Sequence record: DQ121662.1
Length of the DNA stretch: 46,072 nucleotides
Reading direction: 5' to 3' (one strand)
DNA from: Escherichia phage Jk06
Shown here: positions 1,311 to 27,803 of the stretch, piece after piece
How the letters are laid out: the number at the start of each line of letters is the position of its first letter
Numbering within the stretch: the stretch's first letter is position 1
Notes under the pieces: generated by a model
The model's database searches: none
Seen by the model: the letters and a program-made list of their open reading frames with translations, nothing else
What the model was told of the DNA's origin: nothing
Made by a program: the position numbers and the translations under genes

Positions 1311-1334
1311 AAAAAGCCCCGAAAGGGGCTTAAT
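1311..1334. terminator. bidirectional intrinsic terminator hairpin AAGCCCCGAAAGGGGCTT
   Basis: Perfect GC-rich stem with GAAA loop at 1314-1331, A-run upstream and T-rich downstream, between convergent genes; identical hairpin at 42511-42528. Confidence 0.6.
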
Positions 1335-4300: not shown

Positions 4301-4763
4301 TTGTTCCATTTAAATCTCCATTCTCTTCTTGCTTAACTAGTCGAGGCCAGAGCAGTTTAACGCGGATTGCTGATAGCTGACTGTTGTTAACTGCGATGAT
4401 GTAAGGTGTGTCGTTGTTAATTTCACGACTAACCTGAATCTCTGATGCCGCGCCATCTAGTCCTGCGATGTAATCTTGGGATTGAGTGCCGGCGCGAAAC
4501 TCAGCTGTCACACCTTCATAGTTGAATGAGTTATCCTGGTTCTGTACTGGAACGTCAGCAAGGTAAACATCCTTAAGTGAGAAGCTAGAATCAACTTCGC
4601 CATCAGCTACAGCCAGTAGCACCTTAATCTTGTTAAGTGAAATCAGGTTATCTTCTTGCTCTACAGGCGTGTGCGGCTTCTTGCTACCACCCTTGCTTCC
4701 ATAAATCTTTGGCAAATCGGCCATATCATATAACCTCGTTGTTTGTTTAACCATTTGTGCCAT
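1338..4763 (-). CDS. central tail fibre / host specificity protein (lambda J-like), 1141 aa
   Basis: Uninterrupted 1141 aa ORF; segments resemble lambda J by eye; last gene of the tail module after I/K/L/M-like genes. Confidence 0.85.
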   Translation of the reverse strand: MAQMVKQTTRLYDMADLPKIYGSKGGSKKPHTPVEQEDNLISLNKIKVLLAVADGEVDSSFSLKDVYLADVPVQNQDNSFNYEGVTAEFRAGTQSQDYIAGLDGAASEIQVSREINNDTPYIIAVNNSQLSAIRVKLLWPRLVKQEENGDLNGTTCEYAIDLSVNGAAYTEYTRGVANGKTTTGYDRSIRVNLPAEFSSALVRIRKLTPDSTSSTLVNGMQIATYQEVIDAKFRYPLTALVYVEFSSDLFPNGIPTIAIKKKWKLIRVPTNYNPETRTYSGAWNGTFKMAWSDNPAWVLYDLVVSQRYGLDQRELGVEIDKWGLYEAAQFCDQMVPDGKGGMEPRYTCNVVIQQKVEAYQLIRDICSIFRGLTFYDGEQIGIVVDRPRQPSYVFTNDNVVDGLFNRTFSSDKSLYTTANVQFDDEQNNYQQDVEPVFDLEATRRFGYNPVDLTAIGCVRRSEANRRGRWLLKTNLRSETVTFTTGLEGMIPMIGDVIAVNDQAWSSNYTLNLSGRIVEATGLQVFVPFAIDADPGDRILINKPDGSPEYRTIASVSADKLTLELNTAFSFTPQPDTVFAIDKQNLALQQYVVTGIQKANTDGEDSFQYSITAVQYDPNKYDEIDYGVNIDDRPTSIVDPDRILPPENITVTSYSKVVQGLSVETMVIGYDKVQYAKTYNVQWRKNNGNWINVPETANTEVDIEGIYAGIYDVRVRAVTDQKSVSAWSDITTVSLTGKIGEPSAPPVITASDDEVFGIRVKWGFPTDSADTAYTELQQVPDNGDGTYNPESASLLTLVPYPQYEYWHTTLPAGNVRWYRARIIDRIGNVSPWTDFVRGMASDDVSAIIGDIKVDIENSDGYKYLLHNAIDANTDIQNQAEAIIENALANDTDVRVMKRENGARKAEYRQAVSLIADETQARVDALTQLKAQIDDEIVGQITTIETALATETEARATADTQLSARLGDNEASLNQKLDSYATVEGVGVQYGVKLGLKYNGVEYGAGMSMELTGSGGNVRSQFIFDANRFAISNGISSGSGQWSLPFVVENNQVFIQSAVIQDGSITNAKIGNRIQSNNYVAGSAGWAIDKSGFAELSNATVRGSLYANNGNFAFNGTNNTVVINNNGITVNLPNGGRVVVGVW

Positions 4764-4773
4764 TCTACACTAA

Positions 4774-4798
4774 ATAAAAAACCCGCACTAGGCGGGTT
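4774..4798 (-). terminator. hairpin plus U-run between tail assembly I and J-like genes (possible attenuator)
   Basis: AACCCGCACTAGGCGGGTT stem-loop followed on the minus strand by a T-run, about 15 nt upstream of the J start. Confidence 0.4.
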
Positions 4799-6873: not shown

Positions 6874-6912
6874 GATATTTCTCCAATAAAAAAGACCCCG
6901 TAGGGTCTTAGT

Positions 6913-7263
6913 TTACTGCATCGAGGTGAAAACTTCTACAAACTGCATTGATACAGTCTGCACTTCCTTGGTGTTTGGTGTGACGCTGATACTGTCCTGA
7001 GCTACAACAAACAGCTTAAGCTCACCCTGCGGAGTTGTCCATGCGAACGGGGTGATGATGTGAGCAAAGCAGAAGTCCAACACTTCCTTCCAGCTGGTGT
7101 TGGTGTAGGTCATGTTGTAGGTGCGCTTATTGGTCCTGTAACCTCCGGTTCCGCGCTGCTCGTAGCCATTGCCAAAGCTAACAACCCTAACGTTATTCGC
7201 GTTAGTAAAGTTTGCTGATCCACCTTGAATTTGGGTACACCATGTAAAAGTATCTAATGCCAT
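6913..7263 (-). CDS. minor tail protein (lambda M-like)
   Basis: 116 aa ORF immediately downstream of the tape measure gene; conserved position. Confidence 0.6.
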   Translation of the reverse strand: MALDTFTWCTQIQGGSANFTNANNVRVVSFGNGYEQRGTGGYRTNKRTYNMTYTNTSWKEVLDFCFAHIITPFAWTTPQGELKLFVVAQDSISVTPNTKEVQTVSMQFVEVFTSMQ

Positions 7264-7294
7264 TTAAAATCCTTAGGGGCCGAAGCCCCATTTA

Positions 7295-10200
7295 TTAACT
7301 ATAACCTCGCAAGAACTGGTAAGCCGTTCCGCCCTGCTGGAAGGACTGAGTAATCTCTTCCGCGATGATAACCCTGATACCAGATTCTAACTGTTTAGCG
7401 TCATTACCGCCACCACCGCCAAGACCTGTCTGAACGGTAACATTCACTCCACCAACATTAACGTTACTTCCACCAACAAGCCCGCCAGTCGCATAGCCAG
7501 GACCAGCACCAACCACTCCACCATTTGCGTATCCGCGCATTAACTTATAAAGGTTATCAACGCCAATCCTTGAGGTTGCCTCCTTCGTAAAGACGAATTC
7601 ACCTTTATGCACCGTGCCAGCTGGCTCGTACTTACCACCGTTTCCAGTATAACCGCCAGAAGCGAAACCAAATGCGCTACCAATAGAGCCAATTGCACCA
7701 CCACTACCGCCAAAACTGGAGATGGTTGATTCAATCGCCTTAATTAAAAGTAGCTGCGTTGCAATGCGTGCAATCTGCTTCAGAATCGATGCGGTAAACT
7801 CACGGAAGCTAGCTTCTCCAGTAGTTACCAGGTTTGTTATCTGGTCAGTCAATCCGTTAAAGGCACTCATGGCTAGCTCGGAACCAATCTGATTAAAGTT
7901 TGCCAATTCATCAGCCGTCTCAGCAAACGCAGATTTAACGCCAGCCAGCCAGTTACCACGTAATGCATCTTCCTGATTGTAGAAATTCTGACGAGCCTGA
8001 AGTAAAGCCTGGAAGTCAGTGTCATCTACGGAGCCACCTTTAGAAATTTGCTGGGCTTCTAGCGCCGCCAACTCACGCCGCCTTTCCGCTTCGCGCTGAG
8101 ATAATCCTGCTCCAACACTAATTGATGCCGCTTCAGCGTTAATCTGCCGAGTCTTCTTGATGTTGTCATCAAGAAGTTTATTGGCCCTTTCTTGCAGCAC
8201 AATCTGGTCGCCAATCTCAGCCTTCTCGCGAGCGAGTCCTAAGATTTTATCCTGCTGCAACAGTAATGATCGCTGTTGCTTTGTGATGGTTCCGTCTGCA
8301 AGCCTTTCATTAAGGATTGCAAACTTAGCTTCCTCCGCAAAAAGCTGCTTGCGTTCGTTACTGATAACATCACTAATCTGGCGGTGTTCCTGAAGAACCT
8401 TAAGCTGAGCCTGCAGAGCTAGAACGCCAGACTCATAACTTATAGTCAAATCCCTCTCTTCTTTTGCTCCAGATTTTGTCTTTTTACTTCTCTCCTCAAT
8501 TGCTTTAATCTCATCGGCCAAAGCCTTTCTTCTTGATTCTGAATCTCTATCAGAAGTTCCAGTTTGACTTTCTGAACCCTCTCCAACACTCAAGTAACCA
8601 GTCTCGCCCCTGCGAACCCTTGCATACCTATCAGCGATAGATTTAGCTAGCCTTATGTTTTCCTTTTCTATTGCGTCATTATCCTTCCTTAGTTGTTCGG
8701 CTATTCCATTACCAACGCCAGATGCTCCTGGTATCTTTTGTAAAGCCTCTATCCCGCGTATTACGAAATCATTTATTAGCTTGTCGCCAGTGCCAATTAT
8801 CAGTCTTATTTGCTCAATAGTCGCAGCTATAACGTCAGTAAATAGGTTTAGAGCTCCTATAGTCCTGTCACCTATAGCATCCCATGTGTCTGAAACGAAC
8901 TTACGGAAATCGCCCCAAGCCAATTCAAGAGGTGTAAGCGAGCCTTCAATCTGCTTTGTAACTGACTCATTTCTAGCTGCAAATATTTCTAAAGCTGCTG
9001 TTACTGCTGCTGTTTGCCCTTCCGTTTCTTTTAGGTTGTTAACTAGGGTCAGCTGCCCTTCGCTAAGAAAGTTAAATTGCTTATCTAACTCTATCAGCCC
9101 CTTAACTGGATCTTTTGCTATCTTATCAAAGTCAGATATTATTGATTTCCGCAGACCTTGAACTAACAGCTGAAAGGTTAGCAACAGACTTAGCTATTAA
9201 GTTAATCTGACTAACAGTAAGCCTTCCGTTTGATACTAGCGACTGGTAAATGTCACCAATAGAACCTTTTGTTGCCCTTGATGTTTCATTTAGCTGATCA
9301 GCGTAATCCTTGATAGCGGCAACTGATAAAGTCGACGACCTTCCAGTTTCAATTATTGCGTTATTAAGTTGCCTAACCTCAATAAATGAGTCGTAAGCGG
9401 CTTTACCAAGAACAGCTAATGAAGCAATTATCGCGCCACCAAATATAGTTGCAGCACGACCAAACCTTAAGATAGCCTCATCACCAAGAGTCCTAACATC
9501 AGCAAATGAACTTCTCAGCTCTCCTATTGATGATACATAATCTATAACTGCACCTTGCGCAGCTGATAATGTATTTGAAAATCCACCAAATGAATCTGTA
9601 ATCTGCGGTATTTGCTGGGTAAGCACCATAAATAAAGGCATACCGTTAGCAATCGAGCTAGTGATATCATTGATCTGTACAGGAAGGAACCTTAAGGCCT
9701 GATTGTACTGACCTGCCGATATCCCAGCCGCCTGAAACGCCCTACTTTGATTGGCTATAGCGTTAGTATTGTTACTTGATGCCTGTGTTATATCTATCTA
9801 TTATTGGTGCTGCCTGATCGCTAACTCCAAGCTGTGCCGCCCTTAACTTTAAGAACTCATCCCTACTTAATGTCGCTGCATCAGCCTGTGCTTGAAGCGA
9901 CCTAATAAATGATTGTGCTTGCCTCTCAGCGGACTCTTTATTTTTTGCAGCTTCTATAGCCGCCCTACCCTCCTCAGTTAATGCTGACCTAGACCTTATT
10001 AACCTATTTGTTTGCGTTTCTAATGCTTCACCAAGCCTGTAAAACTCAGCCTCTGGAACAACCCCTGCGGAGAAGGCTCTATCAAGAGAACTTGCTGCAT
10101 CTTGAAGTTTTCGCAATTTCGAAGCTGTTGGATCAATTGCCGACTGAAGCGACTGAAAAGCACTTCTCTGCTCAGAAAGATACCTTGCAGTGTCGCGAGC

Positions 10201-10352
10201 CTGATTCTTCGCAACCAGCTCAGCGTTTAACGAACTCGCTAACTCCAGCTGCCGCCTGTTCATTGGCACGTTTAAATTCTTGCAGGGACTTTATGCCCTG
10301 GATCAACCTGGCGAACGTCAACGCCAAGAGTGATACCTGCAAATTCTGCCAT
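7295..10352 (-). CDS. tail tape measure protein, reading frame interrupted at about 9.13-9.19 kb, 9.64-9.78 kb and 10.27 kb
   Basis: Track ORFs 9772-10269, 9132-9641 and 7295-9184 are contiguous, coiled-coil rich with a Gly-rich C-terminal part; ATG at 10352 preceded by GGAGG. Confidence 0.75.
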
Positions 10353-10361
10353 GTAACCTCC

Positions 10362-10388
10362 ATAAAAAAACCTCCACAAAGGGAGGTT
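10362..10388 (-). terminator. hairpin plus U7 run immediately upstream of tape measure RBS
   Basis: AACCTCCCTTTGTGGAGGTT stem-loop followed by TTTTTTT on the minus strand. Confidence 0.5.
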
Positions 10389-10641
10389 ATTTTTGCCTTA
10401 CTTGCATCATCTCAAGTGCTTTGCACTCCAGTATTCGCAAGTCATTTAAAGTCATCTCTTTGTCCTTGACATTATACACATCAAAGAGGAAAGGGAGTAC
10501 TGAATAATCTATTCCGGTAGCGCCGTTCATACCTACACGCCATTGAGTTGAAGCTGCCTGATAAACAGTCCATGCCAGCATCATGTCATCATCGAAGTGT
10601 AACTCCTCTGGCTCCTCATCTTCGTAATCGGAACGCCGCAT
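10387..10641 (-). CDS. tail assembly chaperone, distal ORF (possible frameshift extension of the upstream chaperone)
   Basis: 84 aa acidic ORF whose frame is open across the stop of ORF 10704-11018 (-1 frame); location between major tail and tape measure genes. Confidence 0.45.
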   Translation of the reverse strand: MRRSDYEDEEPEELHFDDDMMLAWTVYQAASTQWRVGMNGATGIDYSVLPFLFDVYNVKDKEMTLNDLRILECKALEMMQVRQK

Positions 10642-10703
10642 TCCAATGGCTTCAAGTTCGGCGTCCGTTGGCTCTCTTTGATACTGTAGATATACTGCGC
10701 GCT

Positions 10704-11018
10704 TTAGACCTTTGCGCGCTGGCCCGCCAGAGCTTGCATGTAAGCATTAGTCAGTGCCAGAACGGATGCGGGGAACAGAGATACCAGCTCTTCGATGTTC
10801 TCGTCGTTAAATTCTTCTTCAAGGTTCCAGCCGCTGCAAATCTCTTTAACAAAGTCAAAATCCTTAAGGCCTTCGGTCTGGAATACTTCCTGAATCTCCT
10901 TAGCCTTACGGTGCTTGGCATTGAAGATAACCTCAGCTTCCTCGCCGTTGATCATCTGGAACTTAACCGGAAGCTTGAAATCAGGGAGCGCGCCTAATTT
11001 TAATTTGAATTTCGCCAT
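10704..11018 (-). CDS. tail assembly chaperone
   Basis: 104 aa ORF directly downstream of the major tail protein gene and upstream of the tape measure gene. Confidence 0.55.
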   Translation of the reverse strand: MAKFKLKLGALPDFKLPVKFQMINGEEAEVIFNAKHRKAKEIQEVFQTEGLKDFDFVKEICSGWNLEEEFNDENIEELVSLFPASVLALTNAYMQALAGQRAKV

Positions 11019-11061
11019 TTAAATAATCCTCTCGTGTTTGTTTGAGTTGAAATTATAACAT

Positions 11062-11086
11062 AAAAAAAGCCCCTGTGAAGGGGCTT
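11062..11086 (-). terminator. hairpin plus U-run after major tail protein gene
   Basis: AGCCCCTTCACAGGGGCT stem-loop followed by TTTTTTT on the minus strand. Confidence 0.5.
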
Positions 11087-11091
11087 GATTG

Positions 11092-11742
11092 TTATGCAGC
11101 CAGGAAGCTATAGCGTCCACGTACCGTAATTGCTACGGATACAGTTTCGATCTCGTTAACGGAAACGTTTGGAGTTTCGTTAAACGCGATAGTGCCAGTC
11201 CAAAGTCGAACTTCGCCAGCTTTAGGAACGTATGCACGAATCGCAATCAGCGCGCCAGACTCGTCGTAGTTGCGGAGTACCGGGTAGATCGGGTTGGTGA
11301 ACTCGTGAGCAAACGTATAGGTCGTGTTTACCGCTGACTTATAAGTTGGAATCTGCTGCTCACGGTCATCAGCCAGGCACTGATAAGTAACGAACTGCTG
11401 CTCTCCGCCATCAGTTGAAACGTCTTGAACACAAGGCATTTCATACCAGGTAAGAACCTTGTAGATCGATGCCGTTCCGCCAGCTGGGAACTGAAGCGGG
11501 TCAGTAGTGTCAATGCCTTCAACGGTAATTGTTGTAGCCGTTGATGTAACTACTCGCAACTGTTTCTCTGAAAGTTTAGACCATGAAGATGACTCAACAA
11601 CAATGAAGTCACCAGCTGCGAAAGTTGAAGCGTCATCTACCGTCATAACTGGCTGAGCTGCGTTAGTGATAGCCGTTACGGCTACCGATTCAGATTTAGA
11701 GCCTTGCAAAAAAATTTGTGTGCCATTGCTGAGATGGGCCAT
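11092..11742 (-). CDS. major tail protein
   Basis: 216 aa ORF in the position of a siphovirus major tail subunit, between neck genes and chaperones. Confidence 0.65.
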   Translation of the reverse strand: MAHLSNGTQIFLQGSKSESVAVTAITNAAQPVMTVDDASTFAAGDFIVVESSSWSKLSEKQLRVVTSTATTITVEGIDTTDPLQFPAGGTASIYKVLTWYEMPCVQDVSTDGGEQQFVTYQCLADDREQQIPTYKSAVNTTYTFAHEFTNPIYPVLRNYDESGALIAIRAYVPKAGEVRLWTGTIAFNETPNVSVNEIETVSVAITVRGRYSFLAA

Positions 11743-11756
11743 GTAAATCTCCTTAA

Positions 11757-12143
11757 TTAATCCATACGTACGTAGAATCGGACAGGAATGAACCAGCCGG
11801 ATTGCGATTTCACTGGAGGAAATACGGATCCGCCTTCATAAATGTATCCGCTGTCAAGCATTGTACCATCGGCGAAAGCTTCTGACAATCGCCCAGCCAA
11901 TTGGCGAGGTCTATCAGTCCCCTCACCTGGTGAAAAGAATATAGAGACCTGAACCATGCCTACGTAATACCTGCATGTTCGCTGCAATCCCCATGTCACA
12001 CTATCAACCTCCGTGTAATCAAACTTCAACCATGAACTTCCGTTTTTGGGTGGCGTGAATCCGCAGTTCTCGTAAGCAACTGGTAGACTGCCAGCAATAT
12101 CAACTGCCGCATCACTAACCAGTTTCCTTGCTGCAACCATCAT
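11757..12143 (-). CDS. tail completion / tail terminator protein (start chosen at the internal ATG at 12143)
   Basis: Track ORF 11757-12272 overlaps the upstream gene by 128 nt; the internal Met gives an ATGA-type junction with the upstream stop. Confidence 0.45.
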   Translation of the reverse strand: MMVAARKLVSDAAVDIAGSLPVAYENCGFTPPKNGSSWLKFDYTEVDSVTWGLQRTCRYYVGMVQVSIFFSPGEGTDRPRQLAGRLSEAFADGTMLDSGYIYEGGSVFPPVKSQSGWFIPVRFYVRMD

Positions 12144-12144
12144 T

Positions 12145-12573
12145 TCATAGTGCACGTTTAGCCTCCTGTACCGCCTCAGCAAAGTAACGGCCAAGCCTCT
12201 TTTGGACAACTCCAAGAACACCAGAAGGTGCCTGATTGGATGAACCAAACTCAAGACCTTGCGCATAATCAAGGCGGTTGCTAATGTAAATTACGTTCGT
12301 ATTGGCATCTCTGGCTAGTGCGTAAATTTGCCTACGAAGAGAGTTACGAGTCTCATTGCCATCAGGGTCGTAATTATTCAGCGACTGCGCGGCAGGTGAG
12401 TTGCCAGTGGCCTGCCAGTTACCCCTGAATCGACCCGTATCAACCGGAGATAGCTTAACGATGTCTTTGGTAGCCTTGGTTAGCGTGCCTTCCACAATCA
12501 ATTCTACTCCCTCTGTCACGCCATCAATCCATGCGTTAATTGAGTTCCTGAAACTAACAACGTCATTAGCCAT
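12145..12573 (-). CDS. head-tail joining (neck) protein
   Basis: 142 aa ORF in the neck module; position-based call. Confidence 0.4.
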   Translation of the reverse strand: MANDVVSFRNSINAWIDGVTEGVELIVEGTLTKATKDIVKLSPVDTGRFRGNWQATGNSPAAQSLNNYDPDGNETRNSLRRQIYALARDANTNVIYISNRLDYAQGLEFGSSNQAPSGVLGVVQKRLGRYFAEAVQEAKRAL

Positions 12574-12627
12574 ATGTTGCAGCCCTCCGCAGTACTGGCC
12601 TGTAGGCGATTACCGTTCCGGTCGGCT

Positions 12628-12942
12628 TCACTGGTCTAGGGTCAATGACTGTGTAGCTTCCTGGTCAATGTAGATGCGGTCGCCTTCCGATACAACTGAA
12701 TCAGCAGTAAAAATTCCGCGACGGTCACCGAACTTGATGATGTCACCGTCAATGTCTCTTGCTTTGAATTCACGAATAACACCCCGCACAGTGTAGGAAG
12801 TGCCTGGTGTGCGCACTTCATAGCCATTAACGATAGAGATGGCTGGCTGTGTCGTAGCTTCGAAAACTCCATCACCATCTGACAGGAGATTAATACCAGC
12901 CTTAATTTGCTGCTGCAAAAGTGCATGATTCATCGGCAGCAC
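12628..12942 (-). CDS. head-tail adaptor / head closure protein
   Basis: 104 aa ORF in the neck module; position-based call. Confidence 0.4.
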   Translation of the reverse strand: MLPMNHALLQQQIKAGINLLSDGDGVFEATTQPAISIVNGYEVRTPGTSYTVRGVIREFKARDIDGDIIKFGDRRGIFTADSVVSEGDRIYIDQEATQSLTLDQ

Positions 12943-13307
12943 CTCGACCCACCAGAGGTAATCAAGCCCCAGCGGCCAACCTTGAGACGCATCAAATCAA
13001 TGTAAAGCTTACCCCATGAGGATTCCTCAAGGTTTGATGAGCTAGCTGCGGCAGTGCTTGTATCGTAGCTAATCGTGTACTCGCCTGAAAGTGAGTAGGA
13101 CTTAACCCGCTCAGATGATGTCTGGCTTGAATCATTCTCAGTCTTAAGTGCAATATCCTGGCTAAGCAAGTGAAGAGTGTAGAATGCCAGTGCCTGAACC
13201 TGCTTGTCACCAAACTTGTCTAAGCAGATGAATAGCTTGGCTACCTCAATCCATGCGTTAAGAACATCATCAGGCTGACTCTTAAGAGGCGGGTAAAGCG
13301 TGCGCAT
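12930..13307 (-). CDS. head-tail connector protein
   Basis: 125 aa ORF in the neck module; position-based call. Confidence 0.4.
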   Translation of the reverse strand: MRTLYPPLKSQPDDVLNAWIEVAKLFICLDKFGDKQVQALAFYTLHLLSQDIALKTENDSSQTSSERVKSYSLSGEYTISYDTSTAAASSSNLEESSWGKLYIDLMRLKVGRWGLITSGGSRCCR

Positions 13308-13374
13308 GTACGCAATTACTTCTCATTCATGTGATATCTCCATACAATAAAGGACGCCGAAGCGCCCTTTTGGT

Positions 13375-13620
13375 TTATTTGTAGTCGCCGCCATTCTCAG
13401 CTTCATCAATAGTCTTTGGTTGCTTCTTGGGCTTAGCCTTGGCTTTAACTTCCTGCTCGATTTCTTTAGTTGCCTTGTGGTCATCCTCAACCTCAAGCTT
13501 ACCTTCAGCTACCAAAATCTTTAATCCAACTGATAACTCTTCAACCTCGATAGTTTCGCCTGGAAGGTAATCTTTTGCGCCAAGACGGATAACACAAGCA
13601 CCTTTATGTAACAGTTTCAT
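13375..13620 (-). CDS. hypothetical Lys/Glu-rich protein downstream of the capsid gene
   Basis: 81 aa ORF preceded by TATATAAT, a CAATCGAAACAAAGGAGG leader and an RBS. Confidence 0.4.
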   Translation of the reverse strand: MKLLHKGACVIRLGAKDYLPGETIEVEELSVGLKILVAEGKLEVEDDHKATKEIEQEVKAKAKPKKQPKTIDEAENGGDYK

Positions 13621-13666
13621 TTATTCCTCCTTTGTTTCGATTGTTTGATTATATAGCCATATAAAC

Positions 13667-13689
13667 AAAAATACCACCCCGAAGGGTGG
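13667..13689 (-). terminator. intrinsic terminator after major capsid gene
   Basis: CCACCCTTCGGGGTGG hairpin followed by a T-rich run on the minus strand. Confidence 0.55.
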
Positions 13690-13712
13690 TAAGTAGTAAG
13701 CAATAATTGCCA

Positions 13713-14659
13713 TTACGCGAAGGTGATGCCTTTCATTACAGCCATTGTCAAAGGACGATACACGATCAAGCCAGTTGCCTTAGAGGTTACTGGAATTTTG
13801 AAATGTAAATCCTTAGGCTGAGCTGGCAGCGCGTTAGTCGCTTCCGGAATCTCGATGGCCATGTTGTTAGGGTCTTTCTCATAAGCAATAGCAGCAGAGG
13901 TGCCAGTGCCATTGTAATCATTCAGGTACTGAACGAACTCAACAGTTACTCCGCTGTTGTTCTGGCGGAAGAACTCACCGTAGCTAACAGAGGTACCAGG
14001 AACCAGGTTCTGCATGATACGACGAGCGGTAGTAGGCAGAAGCAGGTGAGTTGCACGGTGCTGACCATTAGTTGAAGTCTCAATGATATCCAGCAGGCTT
14101 GTAATATCGCTTACTGCTGTAGTTGGTTGAGACCATGAGCCACCGCTAACAACGTTGTTGATATTTGGATAGTCGAACACACTCGGGATACCGTGAGCAG
14201 TAGAGCCTGACCATACCAGTTTATCAAGCAGCTTATCGTGAGCTTCGAAAGCAAGAGATTGCTTGCGAGTAGATAGTGACTGACCGGTAGCTTGACCAAC
14301 TTTAATTTCATCGATGGAAATCAAGAAAGCATTACCAAAACGGAAAACTTTACCCTGACGTTCAGTTGCTAAAGCGTCAACAAGTGGCAGGTCATCAGTG
14401 TAGTCAGCTACGATCTGAGCAATACCAACGCCATCAAATACCGGATACTCGAAGTACTTAGCATAGCCGGGAATTTCATTGCTTACAGGGAACAGGTTTA
14501 CTACGGAGTTCTGGTCGTACTCAGTTTCGTAAGCTTTATTCAGGCTTGCAGTTAGCTGCTTCACGGTCCAGATACCAGCCGCATCAGCCTTATCAACGCC
14601 CATAGCTCGCAGGTGGTTAGTAATCTTTTCTTGCTCGAAGCGTCAAGTTTGATAGTCAT
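13713..14659 (-). CDS. major capsid protein, frame change near 14600-14660
   Basis: 296 aa track ORF has capsid-like composition; ATG at 14659 with AAGGA RBS lies in a different frame 19 codons upstream of the track start. Confidence 0.8.
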
Positions 14660-14750
14660 ATTAAGATGCATCCTTTTGTTTATGAGTTTACGTGTCAATT
14701 ATACACGAGATTTTGGTTGGGACAATAGAGTAATCATTTCTCTATTGATT

Positions 14751-15587
14751 TTATGCATCAAGCCTTACTAGCTCTATGCATAGGGCTTGGTTTCCATTCA
14801 CAATGTATCCAGCTGTAAATAGATTTATGGTTGCTCTCCACATTGTGTCTGTTGTGGTTTCATAAAAACTAAGAGTGTATGGCCTGATACCTTGGAACTC
14901 TCCAATATCACCAAGAAGTACTGTGCCAGTTTCTGTTGATGTAGATATCGAAGTTCTTACCGTTGTGTTAGTGTAAACTCCAGTTTCATTGAACGCTTCA
15001 ATATTACCCCTTATAGTTCTAGCTGTAGTGCCATCATCAATCCAAGCCCTAATACTAAAACGAATGTTTGAATCCAGTCTTATCCCTATAGAAATATTGC
15101 TTAAAGGTGCTGGAAGCCTAATCATGTGATTAGTGCCTGTGTTTGGTGATGTTCTAACTTTAAGGAATGATCTTGACATCCCTGCGTCACCTTTATCGCC
15201 TTTAGGGCCAATTGGACCTTGAGGGCCAACCGGACCTTGTGGACCTGCTTCACCTGAACCTCCGCCCTCATCACTTACAAAATCACCTTTCGCCAGAGCT
15301 GAAATATAAGCGCCATCCTCGAAGTGGGCATTACCAAACCTTCGCCAGCCCTGTGCTAGATATCGGTTAACCCTGTTAACTAAACCCTGAATTGTGGTGT
15401 CTGATGTAACCATGAAGTCTTCAACGTTGTTTGCTGTTCCTTTTGCCATCTTCATGCCAAATAGGGTACCGCTCAGCATCTGCACGTCGCCATATGGCTG
15501 GAATCCTGATGAAATCATCATTTTTACGTTTCTGGCTAAGGTTTCAGGTGAATTACCTACTGCCATAGCAATTTCTGTGTAAGCCAT
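14751..15587 (-). CDS. collagen-like repeat protein (candidate head fibre / decoration protein)
   Basis: 278 aa ORF with G-X-Y run GEAGPQGPVGPQGPIGPKGDKGDAG between an N-terminal domain and a Thr/Ser/Asn-rich C-terminal domain; RBS AGGAG upstream. Confidence 0.6.
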   Translation of the reverse strand: MAYTEIAMAVGNSPETLARNVKMMISSGFQPYGDVQMLSGTLFGMKMAKGTANNVEDFMVTSDTTIQGLVNRVNRYLAQGWRRFGNAHFEDGAYISALAKGDFVSDEGGGSGEAGPQGPVGPQGPIGPKGDKGDAGMSRSFLKVRTSPNTGTNHMIRLPAPLSNISIGIRLDSNIRFSIRAWIDDGTTARTIRGNIEAFNETGVYTNTTVRTSISTSTETGTVLLGDIGEFQGIRPYTLSFYETTTDTMWRATINLFTAGYIVNGNQALCIELVRLDA

Positions 15588-15638
15588 CTTTATCTCCTGA
15601 TTGGTTAATAATCATTGACAGTCTAACAGTAAAGAGCA

Positions 15639-15662
15639 ATAAAAAACCTCCCGAAGGAGGTT
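15639..15662 (-). terminator. intrinsic terminator
   Basis: ACCTCCTTCGGGAGGT hairpin followed by a T-run on the minus strand, downstream of gene 15680-16147. Confidence 0.5.
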
Positions 15663-15679
15663 TGATTAAGCGTTTATAG

Positions 15680-16147
15680 TTATTTTTGGATAACCTGAAC
15701 CTCAACCAGTGCTGGCTCTCCAGATGCGGCATCAGCTGCCTGGAATCCACCTGCGAATGTCCAGTTAGTAGTTAAGGTGCCGCCGCTTGTTGCTAATCCA
15801 TTGGCATCAACGGTAACGGCGCTACCAAATGCAGGAGCTGCTGAAAGGCTAGTTGCCATCCAGATTCGACCGTGAGTCATTACGTTAGACACGGAGAAGT
15901 TGTCAACATCACCAGCAGAACCGCCATAAGTTCCCTTAGGAGACTCGTAATGCGACCTTACCAGGACGCCGTAAACATTACCAGATGCCGGAGCTACCAG
16001 CACCTTGTGACCATCAACAACAGAATCAACTCAACAGCAGTGCCAACATTGCGCACGAGAGCCCGAAGATGTTACACAGGCACCATCAATATTGTACAGA
16101 GAGGTATCTGCAACCATACCAGCAGTAGCTTGACGACGAATTGCCAT
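15680..16147 (-). CDS. hypothetical head-module protein (possible decoration protein), frame interrupted near 16000-16030
   Basis: ATG at 16147 with AAGGAG RBS opens a 38-codon frame that stops near 16030; track ORF 15680-16003 continues in another frame. Confidence 0.4.
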
Positions 16148-16158
16148 ATTAAGACTCC

Positions 16159-17268
16159 TTATTTTTTCAATTTAGCGAGGCGAGCGCGCGGGTCTAATTT
16201 CTTAGGCGCGTCGGCTGCGTCAGATTTATCCGCAGCAGCAACTGCTTTGCGGGCTTCGGCCATTTTATCACTATCTTTAGCGATATCAAAGGCTGCATCG
16301 ATGTATGCGTCAGATTTCTCAGCAACTTCAATACCAGACACTTCTTTAACGTAAGCAACTTTGATTGCTTTAGCATCCAGGCCATCACATTTAACGCCAG
16401 CTTCTGCGGCAACTGCGACCAGGGCAGCCATTTCGTCAGCATCAGTCTTAGCTTTGGCTAAAGCAGCTTCGATTTCAGCGGGGATGCCATCAACTTTAGC
16501 TTTCAGTGCGTCGCGCTCAGCTTCCAGAGTGTCAGCTTTAGCTTTAGCCTGCTCCGCATCAGCCTTAACAGCTTCGATATGCTTAGCAACTTCCGGGGCG
16601 ATTTCGAACTCCTGTTCGCCATCGAGTTTAATCTTAATCATCAATTTATCCTCTTTATTTGATTGAACGGTATCAGTATACGGGTTTTCCTGTTCCGCGT
16701 CCAGATTGAGTTTAGCAATACCTGCGCGACCTTTATATACGAGTGCGATATGATTAACAACGATATTCGTCTGTAGCGCATCAAAGCGTACCCAATCAGC
16801 AGGAATCTCATCCTGGCTTGCGTACTCTCCATCAAGCTTGTACTCACCCGTTTCATTACTACCCCAGCCAGGAGACTCAATGTCAACAGTGTTGTAGCCA
16901 ACAGAGAGCTCACCAGCAACGCCAGACTTGGCCTTCTCAATTGCTTCCTTGTCGTAAACGGTAAGAGGAACAATCACTGCAGAGTCCTGACGCATAGCTG
17001 AGCCAGACACAGAACCAACAACCACCTCTTTAGCATTTTCAGAGTTGACAACCACGTGGCCAAGAGTTAGCGGCTTACCCTGATAACTCTGCAGCGAATC
17101 GGCTTTAAAAACCTCTGAAGCCGGACGGAACTCTCGGCGCTCTGAACCATCTGGCATATAGTAGGTTTGTACACCTACGCGAGCAACCACTGGGGTGTCC
17201 ACGAGAAAACCGTTCTCATCGAAACGGGCTTTTACCTTGGCGCTATCATAACGCATTTTACTCTTCAT
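16159..17268 (-). CDS. scaffolding protein (possibly protease-scaffold fusion)
   Basis: 369 aa ORF with Ala/Lys/Glu/Asp-rich coiled-coil C-terminal half; located between minor head and capsid genes. Confidence 0.55.
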   Translation of the reverse strand: MKSKMRYDSAKVKARFDENGFLVDTPVVARVGVQTYYMPDGSERREFRPASEVFKADSLQSYQGKPLTLGHVVVNSENAKEVVVGSVSGSAMRQDSAVIVPLTVYDKEAIEKAKSGVAGELSVGYNTVDIESPGWGSNETGEYKLDGEYASQDEIPADWVRFDALQTNIVVNHIALVYKGRAGIAKLNLDAEQENPYTDTVQSNKEDKLMIKIKLDGEQEFEIAPEVAKHIEAVKADAEQAKAKADTLEAERDALKAKVDGIPAEIEAALAKAKTDADEMAALVAVAAEAGVKCDGLDAKAIKVAYVKEVSGIEVAEKSDAYIDAAFDIAKDSDKMAEARKAVAAADKSDAADAPKKLDPRARLAKLKK

Positions 17269-18022
17269 TAATTAAATTCTCCCATTTAGGAACAGCCCAG
17301 CAACGACACCCGTATTGCTGACCGGGGAATATCGCAAGGCCGTCAAGTTTTCCAGCGTCCGAACCATCTGATTTAAAGCTAACCCCCTCACGCAAAACGT
17401 GAGATGGTCGCTCTTTGTCGTCAAGTCTACCACGCCAAACATACTGAGATACACCGGCATCTTCAAGCCTTCTCCGCATAAGGTTTGAGTTTAGAGACCC
17501 TGTAATTCCAGCAGCGATATTTGCTGTTCTCTTTCTGTAGATTCGGTATCTATCATCAAGGTCAACAGTGTTACCAGCCTGCGCAGTAATGGCGTTGTTT
17601 ATGAAATCATCCTTGATGTTGTTTAGCAGCTTTGATGCACTTAACTGCGTGCCAACAATCCAGGAGTTCCTGGTGTCGAGCCACCATGGTTCATCCGCGT
17701 TAATACCATACAATCCTAGCGCAAGAACTACAGGATTATTCTTACCTCCGGAGTTGTTGGCCACCTTAAGGAATTGCGCCGAGTTATAACGATATATTGC
17801 TAGCGCCAGCGCAGGCAGAGTGGAAACAAAACCAGATAGCAGCGCTGAGATTGCATCTGAAAGGTCTGAATCTTCATCTTCAATCTCCTGCGCTGTGTCA
17901 ATTTTTAGCCTCTTTGCAGATAACTTCATTTGCTCAATAAGTTCAGATACCGCAACCAAAAGGCTGCGGTTAATCTGGCTCTCAATTATTTGCGGATACA
18001 TCCAGCGGGTCTTCTGATTCAT
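17258..18022 (-). CDS. minor head / head morphogenesis protein (Mu F-like, SPP1 gp7-like)
   Basis: 254 aa ORF ending with a GCRCWAVP-type Cys motif; directly downstream of the portal gene. Confidence 0.7.
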   Translation of the reverse strand: MNQKTRWMYPQIIESQINRSLLVAVSELIEQMKLSAKRLKIDTAQEIEDEDSDLSDAISALLSGFVSTLPALALAIYRYNSAQFLKVANNSGGKNNPVVLALGLYGINADEPWWLDTRNSWIVGTQLSASKLLNNIKDDFINNAITAQAGNTVDLDDRYRIYRKRTANIAAGITGSLNSNLMRRRLEDAGVSQYVWRGRLDDKERPSHVLREGVSFKSDGSDAGKLDGLAIFPGQQYGCRCWAVPKWENLINEE

Positions 18023-19255
18023 TAATTACAACCTCCGTTTGAATTGAGCCTTCACCAATCTTAACCTCAGTTGAAATTGCGCGCAACGTATCTCTTGCTT
18101 CGTCTGCGTCAATGATTCCAGCTGCAATCAATGCAGCAACTGAGTTAACATTCTTCTCAAGAATCTCAGATTTATCCTTGTCACTAACCTGCGATAGAGG
18201 GTTAAATTCTACTGACCACTCTTGCTCGGTTACGATGAACGGCAGCAGGAACTCAAGCAGAGGCAATAATTCAGCCTTTCGCTTACGGTCAACATAACCG
18301 TAGAAAGTCTCTAGAGCAGTGTTCTGGCTTGCTGACACACCACCAACATTCTTACCCTTAAGGATAATCTCATGAATACCGCTCAGAGCAACGATTCGAT
18401 CGAACTTCTGACTCAGAAATGTATCAATACCGCCAATATCTGAGTTGAGAACGTTGTACTCTTCACTATCCGCGTCAATCCCGATAGCCTGACCAACGCC
18501 ACTGTTATTATCCACTTGAGCCAGACGTAAACGAGCTGCTCCATCTGAATCATCACATAAGTCAGCAAGGCCTTTTGCTTTCCACACTCGCCTGCTGTTT
18601 ACGACGAAGTAACTGAGTAGCTCAGTCGCTCACAGTTCTGATAGTCGTCAATCGCGTCAATTAAGTCACTCAGTTATTACTGCTTGCGCTCCCAGCCATC
18701 GTTATTACGACGTAGGTTGTTAGGTACTCGCTCGCCATCAATGATGTGACAGCGTGTATAGTGCACATCGTAGAACGTTGCCGACCCGTTTGGCGTGATG
18801 CGGTAAGTTAATGGCTTACCAAAACGCGCGTTACGTGGATTCTCCTCGCGAGTCTGGACCTTAATTTGCTGCCGGTCGTATACACGAACCGTTTCAAGCT
18901 CCGCACCTTCACGAACCGGGCTGGTTAGCGCCCTTCCATCCTTCACAATTGCCACTACAGCAGCGCCACCGTATAGTCTCGCCCAGGCTAGTGCGTCGAT
19001 TACGTTATCTGAAAGGCCTAAATCATCCCATCGCGACCAGAATGCACCCTCATCATCAATGCCTTCAATGTTAAAGCCTGCGCCAAGCGCGACCTCTGGC
19101 ACGATATCAATAATTCGACGAACCAACGCACTACTGACGTAAAGCTGCTCAAGCTGTGCTGGAGCTGTCAGGCCAAGGCCGCCAAACTTTCCGTAAATCT
19201 CGCTACCATCAATCCCGTTAAGAAAGATGTTTGCGTAGCTATCTGCTTTTACCAT
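17982..19255 (-). CDS. portal protein, frame interrupted near 18590-18680
   Basis: Track ORFs 18677-19282 and 17982-18587 are contiguous; likely start MVKADSY at 19255 with RBS GGAG. Confidence 0.75.
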
Positions 19256-19270
19256 GTAATTTCTCCAATA

Positions 19271-19297
19271 AAAAAGCCCCATGTAGGGGCTAGTTTA
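19271..19297 (-). terminator. intrinsic terminator after moron gene, overlapping portal RBS
   Basis: AGCCCCTACATGGGGCT hairpin followed by TTTTTT on the minus strand. Confidence 0.55.
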
Positions 19298-19312: not shown

Positions 19313-19687
19313 TTACTGGAATTTTACTTCGAACTTGATTGTGTCGCATTTTACGCCATCCTCATCAAGTTGATCTACAGTATAGCGCACATTCCCGAAC
19401 TCAATCATGTCAACCTCATGCTCGTTTATGTAATATCTAAGCCTTGGCTTTTTATCACCATAAGAAGCTGCACCAGCGCAGTCAGTCTCAGTCTCGAAAC
19501 TCTGATCGCCATCAAGGAGTTCGAACTTGTAGAATGCTCCGTTTTCTACAGCTCGATAGCAACCATCGTCGTCGTAAGTTGAGATGTAGCCATCTCCATG
19601 ATCTTCAATGTCATATTGCTTTCCAACAGTGAAGCCAGGATGCTTTTCATCAGCGCATCCGGTAAACGTAGCTTTTAAAGTTTTCAT
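19313..19687 (-). CDS. hypothetical acidic Cys-containing protein (moron between terminase and portal)
   Basis: 124 aa ORF with its own promoter module (19717-19760) and terminator (19271-19297). Confidence 0.5.
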   Translation of the reverse strand: MKTLKATFTGCADEKHPGFTVGKQYDIEDHGDGYISTYDDDGCYRAVENGAFYKFELLDGDQSFETETDCAGAASYGDKKPRLRYYINEHEVDMIEFGNVRYTVDQLDEDGVKCDTIKFEVKFQ

Positions 19688-19716: not shown

Positions 19717-19760
19717 ATTATAAGCCATCCATGGCGATTATCTTTACCAATTCGTGCTAT
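19717..19760 (-). promoter_or_regulatory. promoter module variant (IR-like ATAGCACGAATTGGTAA, 22 nt, TATAAT)
   Basis: Reverse complement of 19744-19760 matches the repeated IR motif with one change; perfect TATAAT at 19717-19722 on the minus strand. Confidence 0.5.
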
Positions 19761-21323
19761 CTAACGCCAGCTAGCCTCATTAAGCGGGCTCTCGGATCGT
19801 CACTCAAGTTCAATTCACAGTTGATGGCCATTGTTGTCGTATCCACAATGTCATCATGGGGATGAGAATCGTCAGCAGTGAACGCCGAGAACTCGGTTAA
19901 TAGCGAGGTAAGCCATGGCGCAGAGTCAGGCAGAACTACGTTACCAGCTTTAATCTGTGGCAGTGCGCTCATCACCCTGGTTAACTTATCTGTATCTGGA
20001 ACGAAAGGCTCGATAGGAGTTCGCATTACCCGACCCGCCGACTGGATAAGTCCTATTCCAGACGCTTTCTTCTCGATAATAACCTTGCGCAATATACCAT
20101 CTGTCTTACTAGCTGCTCTATGCTTACTCTCAAAGTCCAGAAGAGTTTGCTCAAGTTCAGGTGCTTCCCATTTACCCCTTACCATATCGAGAAGATAAAG
20201 CCTGTTATCTTTGCGCCCCCATAGCTGGAATACTGAGTAGTCGCTATAACTCTTAGTAGTCATGGCAGTATCAGCCGTAATGAATCGGTAGTCATACTTG
20301 GCTGGAGGTCTGTTATTCTCATCGAGGCGAACAACCAATCTACGTTGATCAGGTTTCCACCCAGAGCTACTGGAGATTGTTGGTACTGGCTAAGGAATGT
20401 GTACGGATCTGAGTCCCACATTGCCATCAAGTCATGCACAGATTCCTTCTGCGGGAAGTAGCTGTAATACTTAACACCATCTCGCTCGACGTACTCGGAT
20501 GAAAGCACGTCCTTCTCGAACTGCTCACGAATCCAGTCAGGGAGTTCATTCACATATTCTTCAGTGACCAGCGCCGGTATCTTCACTACATCAAAGTCGA
20601 TACCCATACCACCAGAAGTCATGAACCACGTTGAATCCTGAGTATGAAGCCTTTGCTGAATTGACAGAATTGGCGTAGCTTTACCTTTAACGCTACTCGC
20701 CCTACGTGAGCGAATGGTATTTTTAAGTAAAACGTGGACAGCTTCTCGCCTTACCTTGCTGAGCATATCGTCTGGCTTGTCTGGGTCATCAAGCATCAAG
20801 CAACCGCTATAGGTTTCAGTAATATAACCGCCACGAGCGCCGGTAATCTGACCGCCAATTGCCTTAGATATCGCTTCGAACCTAACCTTTCCACTCTCGT
20901 CAAGAACCTGAATCTCGTCATCCTTGCACGTGCCGAACTTACAGGGCCATAGTTCCTGAAACTCACTGACTTTATAAGGTCGCGAACACGCTTAGAGTTG
21001 CGCTTCACCAGACTGTCAGAGAATGAGAGGCTCAGATTTCGCACCTTCTTTAGCTTAAGCATTGAATATACAGGGAAGTGTATTGAAGTAATCTCGGTCT
21101 TCCCGGCCCCAGGAGCCACGTTAATGATGGTATCCCTACGCTCGCCACTAATAACCTCGTCAATTATTCGGCAAAGGTACTTGTGATGCCAGTTAGGGAT
21201 GTATCGCTCTCCCTGGCTTAGCTGAAACCACACGCGAAGGAATGCCTCGAAGCTGTGAGTGGACAGCGCTTTAACTGCCAGCTTTTCGGCTGGCGTCATT
21301 TCTTCCCAAACTAATGTCTTCAT
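19757..21323 (-). CDS. terminase large subunit, frame interrupted twice (about 20260-20340 and 20796)
   Basis: N-terminal fragment has Walker A VAPGAGKTE; C-terminal fragment has a nuclease-type acidic motif; three overlapping track ORFs 20796-21323, 20260-20799, 19757-20338. Confidence 0.85.
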
Positions 21324-21883: not shown

Positions 21884-21907
21884 AAAAAAAGCCCTCACAA
21901 GGAGGGC
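21884..21907 (-). terminator. intrinsic terminator
   Basis: GCCCTCCTTGTGAGGGC hairpin followed by TTTTTTT on the minus strand. Confidence 0.5.
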
Positions 21908-25777: not shown

Positions 25778-26487
25778 GATGATTCCTCTCGTTGATTGTT
25801 GTTTGTTGCCTCGTTTCGATGAAATGACTATAGCAAAGATTTACGTGTCTATAAATGTATTTTTTTGTTTATTTTAAAATTGATACGCTTTTTTCCCTGC
25901 ATGCCGCATCGTTGCTGGGTGTGTACAGGCGTCTACGTGCGTCTACATATAGATGAGGGGGTTCTAGCTATATCCCCCTATATTTTCCTACAAGGTAGTA
26001 CAATTCCTACAGTGTAGGAATAAAAATAGAAATTTAAGCAAACCAACCTATATAGTAGCGTACAGATGATACGCTATATATACATAATACTATATATAAT
26101 AATAATAATAGTCTAAGTCCTTTATATATAAGGATATTTTAGTGTATATGGATTGTATCAAGGCGTATAAATTGTAAATGTGGATACGGTCGACAATCGG
26201 TAGACAGCGGACTACGCGTATATAAAAGAAGTCTCTCCGCGAGCGATAAAACCAACCAACTATTTGATCCAAACCTCCTTTCATTCAATCCATCCATCCA
26301 TCATTGCCAAACTGGCAACAATCAATAAACCTGTTGCACTCGATGAAATATTGCTTTATGTGTAATAGTCATGCTAATCATCGCAATGCCTGCAACAATC
26401 CATAAATCTGACGAATAGCACTTTTTGCTAAAGACAAATCCACCATGACTGGCTATAGTTTGCCAATCAACAGAGAGGAGAAGAAAC
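25778..26487. other. AT-rich intergenic region with iterons, palindromes and microsatellites between divergent early operons (candidate origin / control region)
   Basis: GCGTCTAC x2, palindrome ATTCCTACAGTGTAGGAAT, (ATA)n, TCCTTTATATATAAGGA, (CCAT)3, TTGCCAAACTGGCAA; no ORF of 60 aa or more. Confidence 0.5.
26414..26459 (+). promoter_or_regulatory. early promoter module (IR plus TATAGT)
   Basis: AATAGCACTTTTTGCTAA at 26414-26431, TATAGT at 26454-26459, RBS GAGGAG and ATG at 26488. Confidence 0.5.
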
Positions 26488-26942: not shown

Positions 26943-27095
26943 ATGCTAAAGCCATCTGACTTGAACTATTACGATCTAGAAACCATAGCCAAGTACAGCG
27001 GTAAGGGTTGGCCTGTTGGTGACTACTTCAAAGAAGATTTGATTGAGAGCTTCAACATCGTCCAGAAGGAAATTGCAAAAGCAGCAAAGAAATAG
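26943..27095 (+). CDS. hypothetical small protein (50 aa)
   Basis: ATG overlapping the upstream stop (TAAATG); not in the ORF track because it is shorter than 60 aa. Confidence 0.35.
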   Translation: MLKPSDLNYYDLETIAKYSGKGWPVGDYFKEDLIESFNIVQKEIAKAAKK

Positions 27096-27153
27096 CACGA
27101 ATTGCTAAAGCCCTTCGGGGCTTTTACTGTATATTCATCTCATCGAAACGAAA
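27091..27153 (+). promoter_or_regulatory. early promoter module (IR, terminator hairpin, TATATT, CATCGAAACGAAA leader)
   Basis: IR at 27091-27108, hairpin GCCCTTCGGGGC, TATATT at 27130-27135, leader at 27141-27153, ATG at 27174. Confidence 0.55.
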
Positions 27154-27173
27154 AGTACTAAAGGAAAATAATC

Positions 27174-27720: not shown

Positions 27721-27766
27721 AATAGCACTTTTTGCTAATGACACTACCCGCTTCGGCGGGTATATT
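27721..27766 (+). promoter_or_regulatory. early promoter module (IR, hairpin, TATATT)
   Basis: AATAGCACTTTTTGCTAA at 27721-27738, hairpin CCCGCTTCGGCGGG, TATATT at 27761-27766. Confidence 0.5.
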
Positions 27767-27803
27767 TGTTTCCATCAAGAAGACAAACACTAAGGTGAAC
27801 AAA

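Follow-up and report, generated by a model that had tools for sequence, protein, structure and literature searches.

The late region of phage T1 is described as a series of modules with rho-independent terminators flanking them (PMC11447400), and this 'transcripton' layout goes back to Roberts, Martin and Kropinski (2004), as cited in PMC11447400; the authors of the work on phage TLS could not confirm transcriptons in that phage (PMC11447400). Rogunavirus genomes carry 18–21 terminators each (Niu et al. 2014, PMC4070988). In the T1 record (NC_005833), rho-independent terminators are placed at the TerL/portal, gp49/gp48, MCP (major capsid protein)/gp46, gp46/gp45, major tail/gp40, gp39/TMP (tape measure protein), M/L and I/J junctions and after J. 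The present analysis concerns the hairpins with U-runs that lie between the late genes of Escherichia phage Jk06 (record DQ121662.1), the whole 46,072-nucleotide sequence of which forms the window examined here. Sequences near-identical to these elements are annotated as rho-independent terminators (WebGeSTer/TransTermHP) in phage AHP42 (KF771237), at the I/J, M/L, T/TMP, MTP (major tail protein)/G (with an overlapping promoter), gp11/gp12, MCP/gp11, gp07/gp08 and TerL/portal junctions, and the GenBank records of phages G29-2 and SA32RD annotate rho-independent terminators at these junctions as well.

Judged from its sequence, Jk06 is a T1-like coliphage (Drexlerviridae, Rogunavirus); region 6000–20000 matches Enterobacteria phage vB_EcoS_Rogue1 over 97% of its length, with 97% identity. 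Mapping of the Rogue1 genes shows that the packaging, head and tail genes all occupy the minus strand, between about 21836 (TerS) and 1338 (the end of the J-like tail tip gene), and all elements are described below as read on this late coding strand. The elements are very probably canonical factor-independent (intrinsic) terminators, real and ordinary, of a kind already known in T1-like phages; such terminators have been recognised in T1 since 2004 and annotated in several relatives.

Probable intrinsic terminators at conserved junctions

Under a strict definition (a perfect stem with 5 bp or more, 4 or more of them GC pairs, a loop of 3–6 nt and five or more T among the 8 nt that follow), the late coding strand contains 8 sites, compared with 0.2 ± 0.46 (maximum 2) in 200 dinucleotide-preserving shuffles, and an origin of the hairpins by chance or composition is rejected on this count. 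A looser terminator scan returned 30 sites, with 16.3 ± 3.4 expected. Every strict site is intergenic, and the summed lengths of the gaps make up only about 4–5% of the late region; all terminator sites lie between genes on the coding strand, with a distance from stop codon to stem of −2 to 21 nt. The stems comprise 5–8 bp, including at least 4 GC pairs, the loops 4–6 nt, and the folding free energies (dG) range from −9.1 to −12.6 kcal/mol. Five to seven U are found in the 8 nt past the stem at 21907, 19291, 15663, 13691, 11086, 10388, 6909, 4798 and 1331; the U-tract is weak at 13370 (4/8), and the hairpins at 7289 and 43002 lack one. The initial annotation, which had drawn attention to these elements, described their loops as of the GNRA/UUCG type: UUCG is present at five sites (13691, 15663, 13370, 7289 and 43002) and UACG at 6909, the remaining loops are 4–6 nt long and of no special class, and no GNRA loop was found among the hairpins of the range 6874–19297.

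The junctions were compared in Rogue1, AHP42, four further Rogunavirus-like contigs, T1 and SA32RD (Tunavirus), G29-2 (Hanrivervirus), KLPN1 (Webervirus), Ec_L1 (Eclunavirus) and Salmonella phage KKP 3830; distant metagenomic loci (L011–L026), found via the major tail protein and having only the MTP, G and T genes in common, were left out. In nearly every genome compared, a hairpin with a U-run occupies the same junctions, and the stem sequences differ (dG −9 to −20 kcal/mol): across six genera, each junction has 4–6 different stems, and the U-tract is retained while the stems change. At the T/TMP junction, the stems include CCUCC/GGAGG, GCCGCC/GGCGG, GCGCC/GGCGC and GCGCUCC/GGGCGC (dG −6.5 to −11.8). 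Cross-genus MAFFT alignments of the junctions are only partly in structural register, and the count of pairs was therefore confined to the outer five pairs of the T/TMP helix; in a small sample of eight sequences, 97.4% of these positions are paired, with GC/CG swaps and two pairs changed on both sides, a level reached by 1/500 shuffles, while slid registers gave 33–63%.

The late region of Jk06 shares with T1-type transcriptons its modules flanked by terminators at conserved junctions, and the match with T1 holds junction by junction. The I/J hairpins of the two phages are homologous (AACCCGCCTTGCGCGGGTT in T1, AACCCGCCTAGTGCGGGTT in Jk06), but most stem sequences are unlike. The M/L terminator of T1 is followed by a promoter-like −10 hexamer, whereas in Jk06 the U-tract runs on into the Shine-Dalgarno sequence; the TMP/M hairpin of Jk06 is missing from T1, where these two genes abut. 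AHP42 differs from Jk06 in its capsid-proximal gene set; in Jk06, an additional open reading frame (ORF), orf124, precedes the portal hairpin and there is no HNH gene between K and L.

The persistence of the U-tract also bears on the idea of a mainly post-transcriptional role, in which the hairpins would block 3'-to-5' exonucleases or flank RNase E sites and so cut a long late transcript into segments that differ in stability, with little termination. The AU-rich tails past the stems resemble the RNase E target sequence, and the two GGGGCUUCGGCCCC hairpins (7289–7276 and 43002–42989), which have no U-run and are not classical terminators, are nevertheless conserved in Rogunavirus; hairpins with a cUUCGg loop are, moreover, exceptionally stable (PMC4371310). 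We nonetheless regard a mainly post-transcriptional role as quite improbable, since 8–10 sites bear the full signature including a U-tract, needless in a pure stability element and kept across genera while stems change, and since the two functions are not exclusive, a terminator hairpin stabilising the 3' end too. RNase III needs a duplex of about 20 bp; stems of 5–8 bp are too short for it, RNase III sites are rejected on this ground, and the RNA-processing layer suggested by the initial annotation is unlikely in that form.

Terminators joined to ribosome-binding sites or candidate promoters

Hairpins with U-runs were present, on the minus strand, at all the places for which they had been proposed, but a position directly upstream of the ribosome-binding site (RBS), originally ascribed to all of them, applies only to the portal, TMP, L and gp25-like genes. 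At these four genes the U-tract leads straight into the Shine-Dalgarno sequence (arrangement (i)), and only there is the distance from stem to ATG 16–20 nt; a terminator tail fused to an RBS is a compact design widespread in phage genomes. The promoter scan found no candidate before portal, TMP, L or gp25, and because there is no room for a promoter between terminator and RBS, these genes would be transcribed only through read-through.

The portal element, found by the terminator scan and by direct reading, consists of the hairpin AGCCCCUACAUGGGGCU (19275–19291, minus strand, dG −11.3), located 21 nt past the orf124 stop, and of a U-tract fused to the RBS (19253–19275), in which the 17-mer UUUUUUAUUGGAGAAAU (19275–19259) is followed by UAC and the portal AUG (19255–19253). 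The portal start of Rogue1 maps to 19255; the ATG at 19282, used in the ORF list, sits within the loop of the portal-upstream hairpin and is not the portal start. The orthologous TerL/portal terminator is annotated in T1, AHP42, G29-2 and SA32RD. In the L element (6874–6909, minus strand), the hairpin AAGACCCUACGGGGUCUU (6909–6892) starts 3 nt past the M stop and is followed by the same 17-mer, AUC and the L AUG at 6873; a terminator is annotated there in AHP42 and T1. At the T/TMP junction (10350–10388, minus strand), the stem of the terminator (10388–10369) begins within the T-frame stop (UAACCUCCCUUUGUGGAGGUU), and UUUUUAUGGAGGUUAC and the TMP AUG follow. The fourth element, at the gp24/gp25 junction (13349–13370, minus strand), was found in our own scan and had been missed by the initial annotation; its hairpin AAAGGGCGCUUCGGCGUCCUUU has a weak tail, AUUGUAUG, which continues into the gp25-like gene's Shine-Dalgarno sequence, and its orthologue is annotated as a terminator in T1, AHP42, G29-2 and SA32RD.

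At G, gp24, the collagen-like gene and J, the stem-to-ATG distance is 48–56 nt, and promoter-like sequence lies between. In arrangement (ii) the terminator is fused to a candidate promoter; weaker candidates lie upstream of J and other genes, and the clearest case in Jk06 is the terminator-promoter composite after the major tail gene (11052–11086, minus strand), which starts with the hairpin AAGCCCCUUCACAGGGGCUU (11086–11067, dG −12.4) and a U-run: a −35 element, TTCACA, is located in the loop, the 3' arm with the U-tract forms a 16-nt spacer, and the extended −10 TGTTATAAT follows. This putative G promoter (11079–11052; 11/12 matches plus TG) is the best promoter match of the region; it is annotated in Rogue1, and AHP42 has an overlapping promoter and terminator annotated. 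The MTP/G, I/J and M/L junctions of T1, SA32RD, KKP 3830, G29-2 and Ec_L1 have a TTGCGC-like −35 in the loop and a 16–17-nt spacer, the −10s of these composites being TATAAT, TACAAT, TAGAAT or TAAAAT.

The major capsid/gp24-like junction (13672–13691, minus strand) carries the hairpin UACCACCCUUCGGGGUGGUA (dG −12.6), with the tail UUUUUGUUU, and a TATAAT hexamer comes after it at 13653–13648; orthologues of this terminator are annotated in T1, AHP42 and G29-2. The hairpin AAACCUCCUUCGGGAGGUUU at the gp20/collagen-like gene junction (15644–15663, minus strand) has a cUUCGg loop and the tail UUUAUUG; the ATG is 56 nt further on, and TGTTAGACT (15628–15620) is a possible extended −10 before the collagen-like gene. 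At the I/J junction (4762–4798, minus strand), the hairpin AACCCGCCUAGUGCGGGUU (4798–4780), a homologue of the T1 hairpin, is followed by UUUUAUUU and then by TGTAGAAT, with a −10-like hexamer at 4767–4762; the terminator is 55 nt upstream of the J start (4724).

Two further terminators do not appear in the initial annotation. The scan revealed the hairpin GCCCUCCUUGUGAGGGC with U7 at the gp14/TerS junction (21891–21907, minus strand), followed, before TerS, by TGGTACAAT (21871–21863), a canonical extended −10; the AHP42 record annotates an orthologous terminator and promoter. An end-of-operon terminator after J (1314–1331, minus strand), annotated in Rogue1 and AHP42, is bidirectional and faces convergent plus-strand genes. 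A terminator after ssb (42510–42529) faces the tail fibre gene, and the bidirectional terminators at the two convergent junctions (1311–1339 and 42508–42536) are 93% identical over 29 nt (AAAAAGCCCCGAAAGGGGCTT...).

A promoter-like sequence, TTGTCC-16-TATAAT (10/12 by consensus match), is located upstream of the major capsid gene (14698–14725, minus strand), and the same junction in T1, Ec_L1 and KLPN1 contains a promoter-like TTGACG...TATTAT; the site would restore transcription past the upstream terminators. A T1-type transcripton would have a sigma-70-type promoter inside each module; by consensus match, the good candidates are those before G, MCP and TerS, and weak −10-like candidates precede J, gp24 and the collagen-like gene. 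The pattern TGnTAnnnT fits only before G, TerS and the collagen-like gene, TG abutting the hexamer elsewhere. Two other strong promoter-like matches with TG are situated inside genes: TTGTCA-17-TACAAT (11860–11888, minus strand), 118 nt ahead of the major tail gene, and TTGATA-16-TAAAAT (16262–16289, minus strand), ahead of gp20; if real, they would boost transcription just before abundant products. In the late region, some ten terminators merit annotation, as do three or more promoters that overlap them or lie next to them; the importance of the elements beyond such correct annotation is small.

Predicted read-through and the expression of late genes

At fixed junctions throughout Drexlerviridae, host RNA polymerase would stop at the intrinsic terminators, and the late region would be divided into nested, overlapping transcription units, as in the T1 'transcripton' layout. 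The terminators are most likely leaky attenuators, and their hairpins would also give stable 3' ends to the upstream mRNA. Genes in arrangement (i) would depend on read-through, and at arrangement (ii) transcription would re-initiate. The initial annotation had proposed partial terminators, and the proposal stands to the extent that partial termination is logical at the four promoter-less junctions and that the elements are terminator-like and conserved in the family. Intrinsic terminators are seldom 100% efficient. In Pseudomonas phage LUZ7, leaky stepwise termination was measured, and more than 60% of the mapped terminators are less than 50% efficient (PMC9163698); LUZ7 resembles Jk06 in having serial terminators within gene clusters, which lead to a transcript staircase, but it belongs to the N4-like phages, is unrelated to Jk06 and has polymerases of its own, and the staircase measured there is for Jk06 a prediction from the placement of the terminators.

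A ribosome following the polymerase closely would block folding of the hairpin and permit read-through without a dedicated antiterminator. At most stems, the upstream stop codon lies between 2 nt inside the stem and 6 nt ahead of it. With lambda's tR2 terminator in Escherichia coli, placing the stop codon 5 nt rather than 28 nt upstream lowered the efficiency from about 90% to less than 10% (Li et al. 2016, PMC4824070), because the ribosome at the stop codon keeps the hairpin from forming; the effect was lost once translation was uncoupled (PMC4824070). Similar stop-proximal geometry is found in Jk06 at T/TMP, M/L, gp24/gp25, MTP/G and I/J, with the difference that tR2 was assayed in a reporter construct in uninfected E. 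coli, whereas the geometry in Jk06 is read from the sequence. Ribosome-assisted read-through is plausibly a sufficient, factor-free explanation, and a dedicated antiterminator is not required, because promoter-like sequences come after several terminators, leakiness is common in phages and the stems are close to stop codons.

The initial annotation took the hairpins to imply an antitermination layer and called for a Q/N-like antiterminator to be sought among the early proteins. Efficient terminators overcome by dedicated processive antitermination, mediated by a protein (as with Q/N of lambda) or by RNA (as with put of HK022), would account for the four junctions without promoter space between terminator and RBS and for hairpins and U-tracts that look strong (dG −9 to −12.6; 5–7 U among the 8 nt that follow); for many of the early proteins no function is known, and late-gene regulation is unresolved in T1-like phages (PMC11447400). 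The search of about 44 non-structural proteins against PHROGs (ten of them also against Pfam) found no member of the Q, N, Nun or other antitermination families, a negative that does not cover highly divergent or novel factors; the sole transcription-related matches were a Cro-like helix-turn-helix regulator (38268–38741) and a Rha-type anti-repressor (45019–45582). An Rfam gathering scan revealed only a tRNA, and no search aimed at nut/qut sites was made. The long late block interrupted by intrinsic terminators resembles that of lambda, but Jk06 has no Q/N homologue and contains several promoter-like sites inside the block, compared with one late promoter in lambda; the conserved promoters after several terminators would be superfluous under a processive system, and stop-codon proximity offers a factor-free route to read-through (PMC4824070). 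Dedicated antitermination is therefore unlikely, and leaky intrinsic terminators remain the preferred reading.

The terminators follow the major capsid and major tail genes and precede genes for low-copy products (connector proteins, chaperones, the tape measure, tip proteins and J). Transcript level would drop after the abundant products, major capsid and major tail proteins, and this placement fits a stoichiometry staircase, the standard reading of such terminators.

Several points weigh against this picture of a late region governed by leaky intrinsic terminators. Ten serial terminators, if each were strong, would severely erode transcription. The stop-to-stem distance is equally short at true operon ends (6 and 10 nt), and for this reason the short spacing may reflect genome compaction, not regulation. 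The promoters are consensus matches only, and promoter-like sites are not enriched (26 vs 32.7 in shuffles); since there is no overall enrichment, only the conserved promoter-like sites carry weight. The T frame is translated only after a −1 frameshift, which would make help from ribosomes rare at T/TMP. A literature search found no RNA or transcriptome data for this phage or any member of Drexlerviridae. Finally, the exact lengths of the U-runs may be unreliable: relative to Rogue1, the Jk06 sequence has about 30 single-base indels inside essential genes, and homopolymer lengths are therefore not trustworthy to the base, though the hairpins do match those of relatives. TMP (7295–10352) is broken into three ORFs, portal (17982–19255) into two and TerL (19757–21299) into three, and the helicase, RecE, Erf and tail fibre genes are likewise hit; few of the indels fall in homopolymer runs, and the pattern suggests mistakes in sequencing or assembly, or else a sequence that is altered or non-viable.

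The T/TMP junction has a geometry of its own. The stop-to-stem distance is −2 (0 in AHP42), and the stem is at or inside the T stop in 14/14 genomes of six genera. Open in the −1 frame from 10746 onwards, the T frame shares the final 42 nt of G (10704–10746, minus strand), as is usual for the G/GT chaperones; the G/T overlap yielded no canonical XXXYYYZ slippery heptamer, the nearest candidate being GCAAAGG. One speculative and rather unlikely possibility is that the T/TMP terminator is a translation-gated attenuator tied to the programmed G/GT frameshift. Polymerases trailed by a frameshifted ribosome would then read through into TMP and others would terminate, transcription of the tape measure gene would be linked to the amount of GT chaperone, and, more generally, late-protein ratios in T1-like phages would depend on stop-to-stem spacing in place of a protein antiterminator. 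A separate observation concerns the 5' arm CCUCC of this element (10353–10388, minus strand), which could pair with its own 3' arm GGAGG or with the TMP Shine-Dalgarno sequence GGAGG, 12 nt on; because CCUCC has two GGAGG partners, the hairpin and a fold masking the Shine-Dalgarno sequence may compete in read-through transcripts.

Repeated sequences within and beyond the terminators

The 17-mer said to be identical at the L and portal starts, TTTTTTATTGGAGAAAT, was indeed found to be exact at 6893–6877 and 19275–19259, in each case followed by 3 nt and ATG. It is made up of the end of the U-tract, AUU, GGAG and AAAU. In an IMG/VR scan, the 17-mer was present in more than 120 unrelated viral contigs of varied sizes and sources among the matches listed; among 94 distinct contexts in those matches, 69 have a stable hairpin that ends at the U-run, 72 have an ATG 1–6 nt on and 58 have both. 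T1 carries the exact 17-mer too, but at MCP/gp46, with close variants at two more junctions, and G29-2 has it at two junctions, with GGAGG; in Rogue1, the closest relative, the L copy matches at 16/17 positions. The 17-mer is, as far as these comparisons indicate, a generic consensus of arrangement (i), and its identity at two places in Jk06 a local coincidence on a widely used design. A phage-specific signal or a recent duplication is rejected as the main explanation, given the unrelated contigs and the different junction in T1, and the fixed downstream initiation cassette of the initial annotation dissolves into this generic design. Over a stretch of 46 nt, the cassettes of L and portal agree at 76% of positions, a similarity that may reflect convergence or an old duplication.

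This similarity, together with the 10-mer TTTTTTATTG common to the terminator tails at four sites, could also be expected if the cassettes were chiefly recombination or insertion boundaries favouring gene shuffling and the insertion of homing-endonuclease genes. Relatives do have HNH or small ORF inserts at TerL/portal, MCP/gp24, M/L, TMP/M and I/J, and in Jk06 a 124-aa ORF, orf124 (19313–19687, minus strand), is inserted between TerL and the portal terminator, so that this ORF and not TerL is the gene 5' of the portal hairpin. The orf124 product matches PHROG 14592 ('virion structural protein', E 2e-46); Rogue1, AHP42 and T1 have no gene at this position, and other relatives have different inserts there. 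Such coincidence is expected, however, where insertions are tolerated only in intergenic gaps; the inserted genes come with a different repeat of their own (AATAGCAC...TTGCTAAAG), orf124 having a AATAGCAC-type cassette upstream (19776–19699), and the shared tail is a generic consensus that also occurs in unrelated phages. A chief role as recombination boundaries is accordingly very improbable, and the cassettes are better read as intrinsic terminators.

The second reported identity, of a 14-mer before the M-like gene and before ssb, is likewise exact (GGGGCTTCGGCCCC at 7289–7276 and 43002–42989), but these two hairpins have no U-run. At the TMP/M junction (7276–7289, minus strand), the GGGGCUUCGGCCCC hairpin is specific to Rogunavirus, TMP and M abutting or overlapping in other genera; the second copy is situated at the erf/ssb junction (42989–43002, minus strand), where G29-2 and SA32RD have annotated terminators. 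The tails that follow are UAAGGAUU and AAAAUCAA, respectively, neither of them a U-run. Because they have no U-tract, the two copies are not filed here as terminators; they are probably not terminators and most likely have a role in RNA stability or local folding. The 14-mer is a minimal all-GC stem closing a cUUCGg tetraloop, and KLPN1 has the same 14-mer at a third, non-homologous junction, there with a U-run; its identity as evidence of a shared regulator is rejected on both grounds. It was in the mRNA of T4 that the exceptionally stable cUUCGg loop first drew attention (Tuerk et al. 1988, described in PMC4371310). As in T4, CUUCGG hairpins lie between genes in Jk06 (7289–7276, 43002–42989, 13691, 15663 and 13370), with the difference that 3/5 copies form terminator stems followed by U-tracts.

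It is not the terminators that make up the dominant repeat family of the genome but a different element, a cassette of 63–78 nt that apparently always follows the local direction of transcription. It consists, in order, of AATAGCACnnnTTGCTAAAG, a short variable GC hairpin, TATAnT and CATCGAAACGAAA. Copies are found on the plus strand at 13–85, 26414–26460, 27090–27162, 27721–27767 and 27919–27991, and on the minus strand at 19776–19699, 23553–23491, 24694–24632, 25832–25810, 32001–31972, 34311–34234, 34985–34956, 35877–35800, 38258–38229, 43734–43672 and 45731–45708. The core of the cassette corresponds to a 21-nt direct repeat without known function reported in phage TLS (PMC11447400). In relatives, the cassette is located at the stop codon ahead of inserted HNH or small genes. 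The spacing from TTGCTA to TATAAT is 22–24 nt, too long for a normal sigma-70 promoter, and the cassette could be a promoter or operator specific to the phage. A 68-nt AT-rich direct repeat (TATACATA..TATATATAATAATAATAATA..), the two copies of which are 82% identical, is located at two divergent or early-region boundaries (26079–26146 and 45929–45996) and may be related to an origin or to early promoters.

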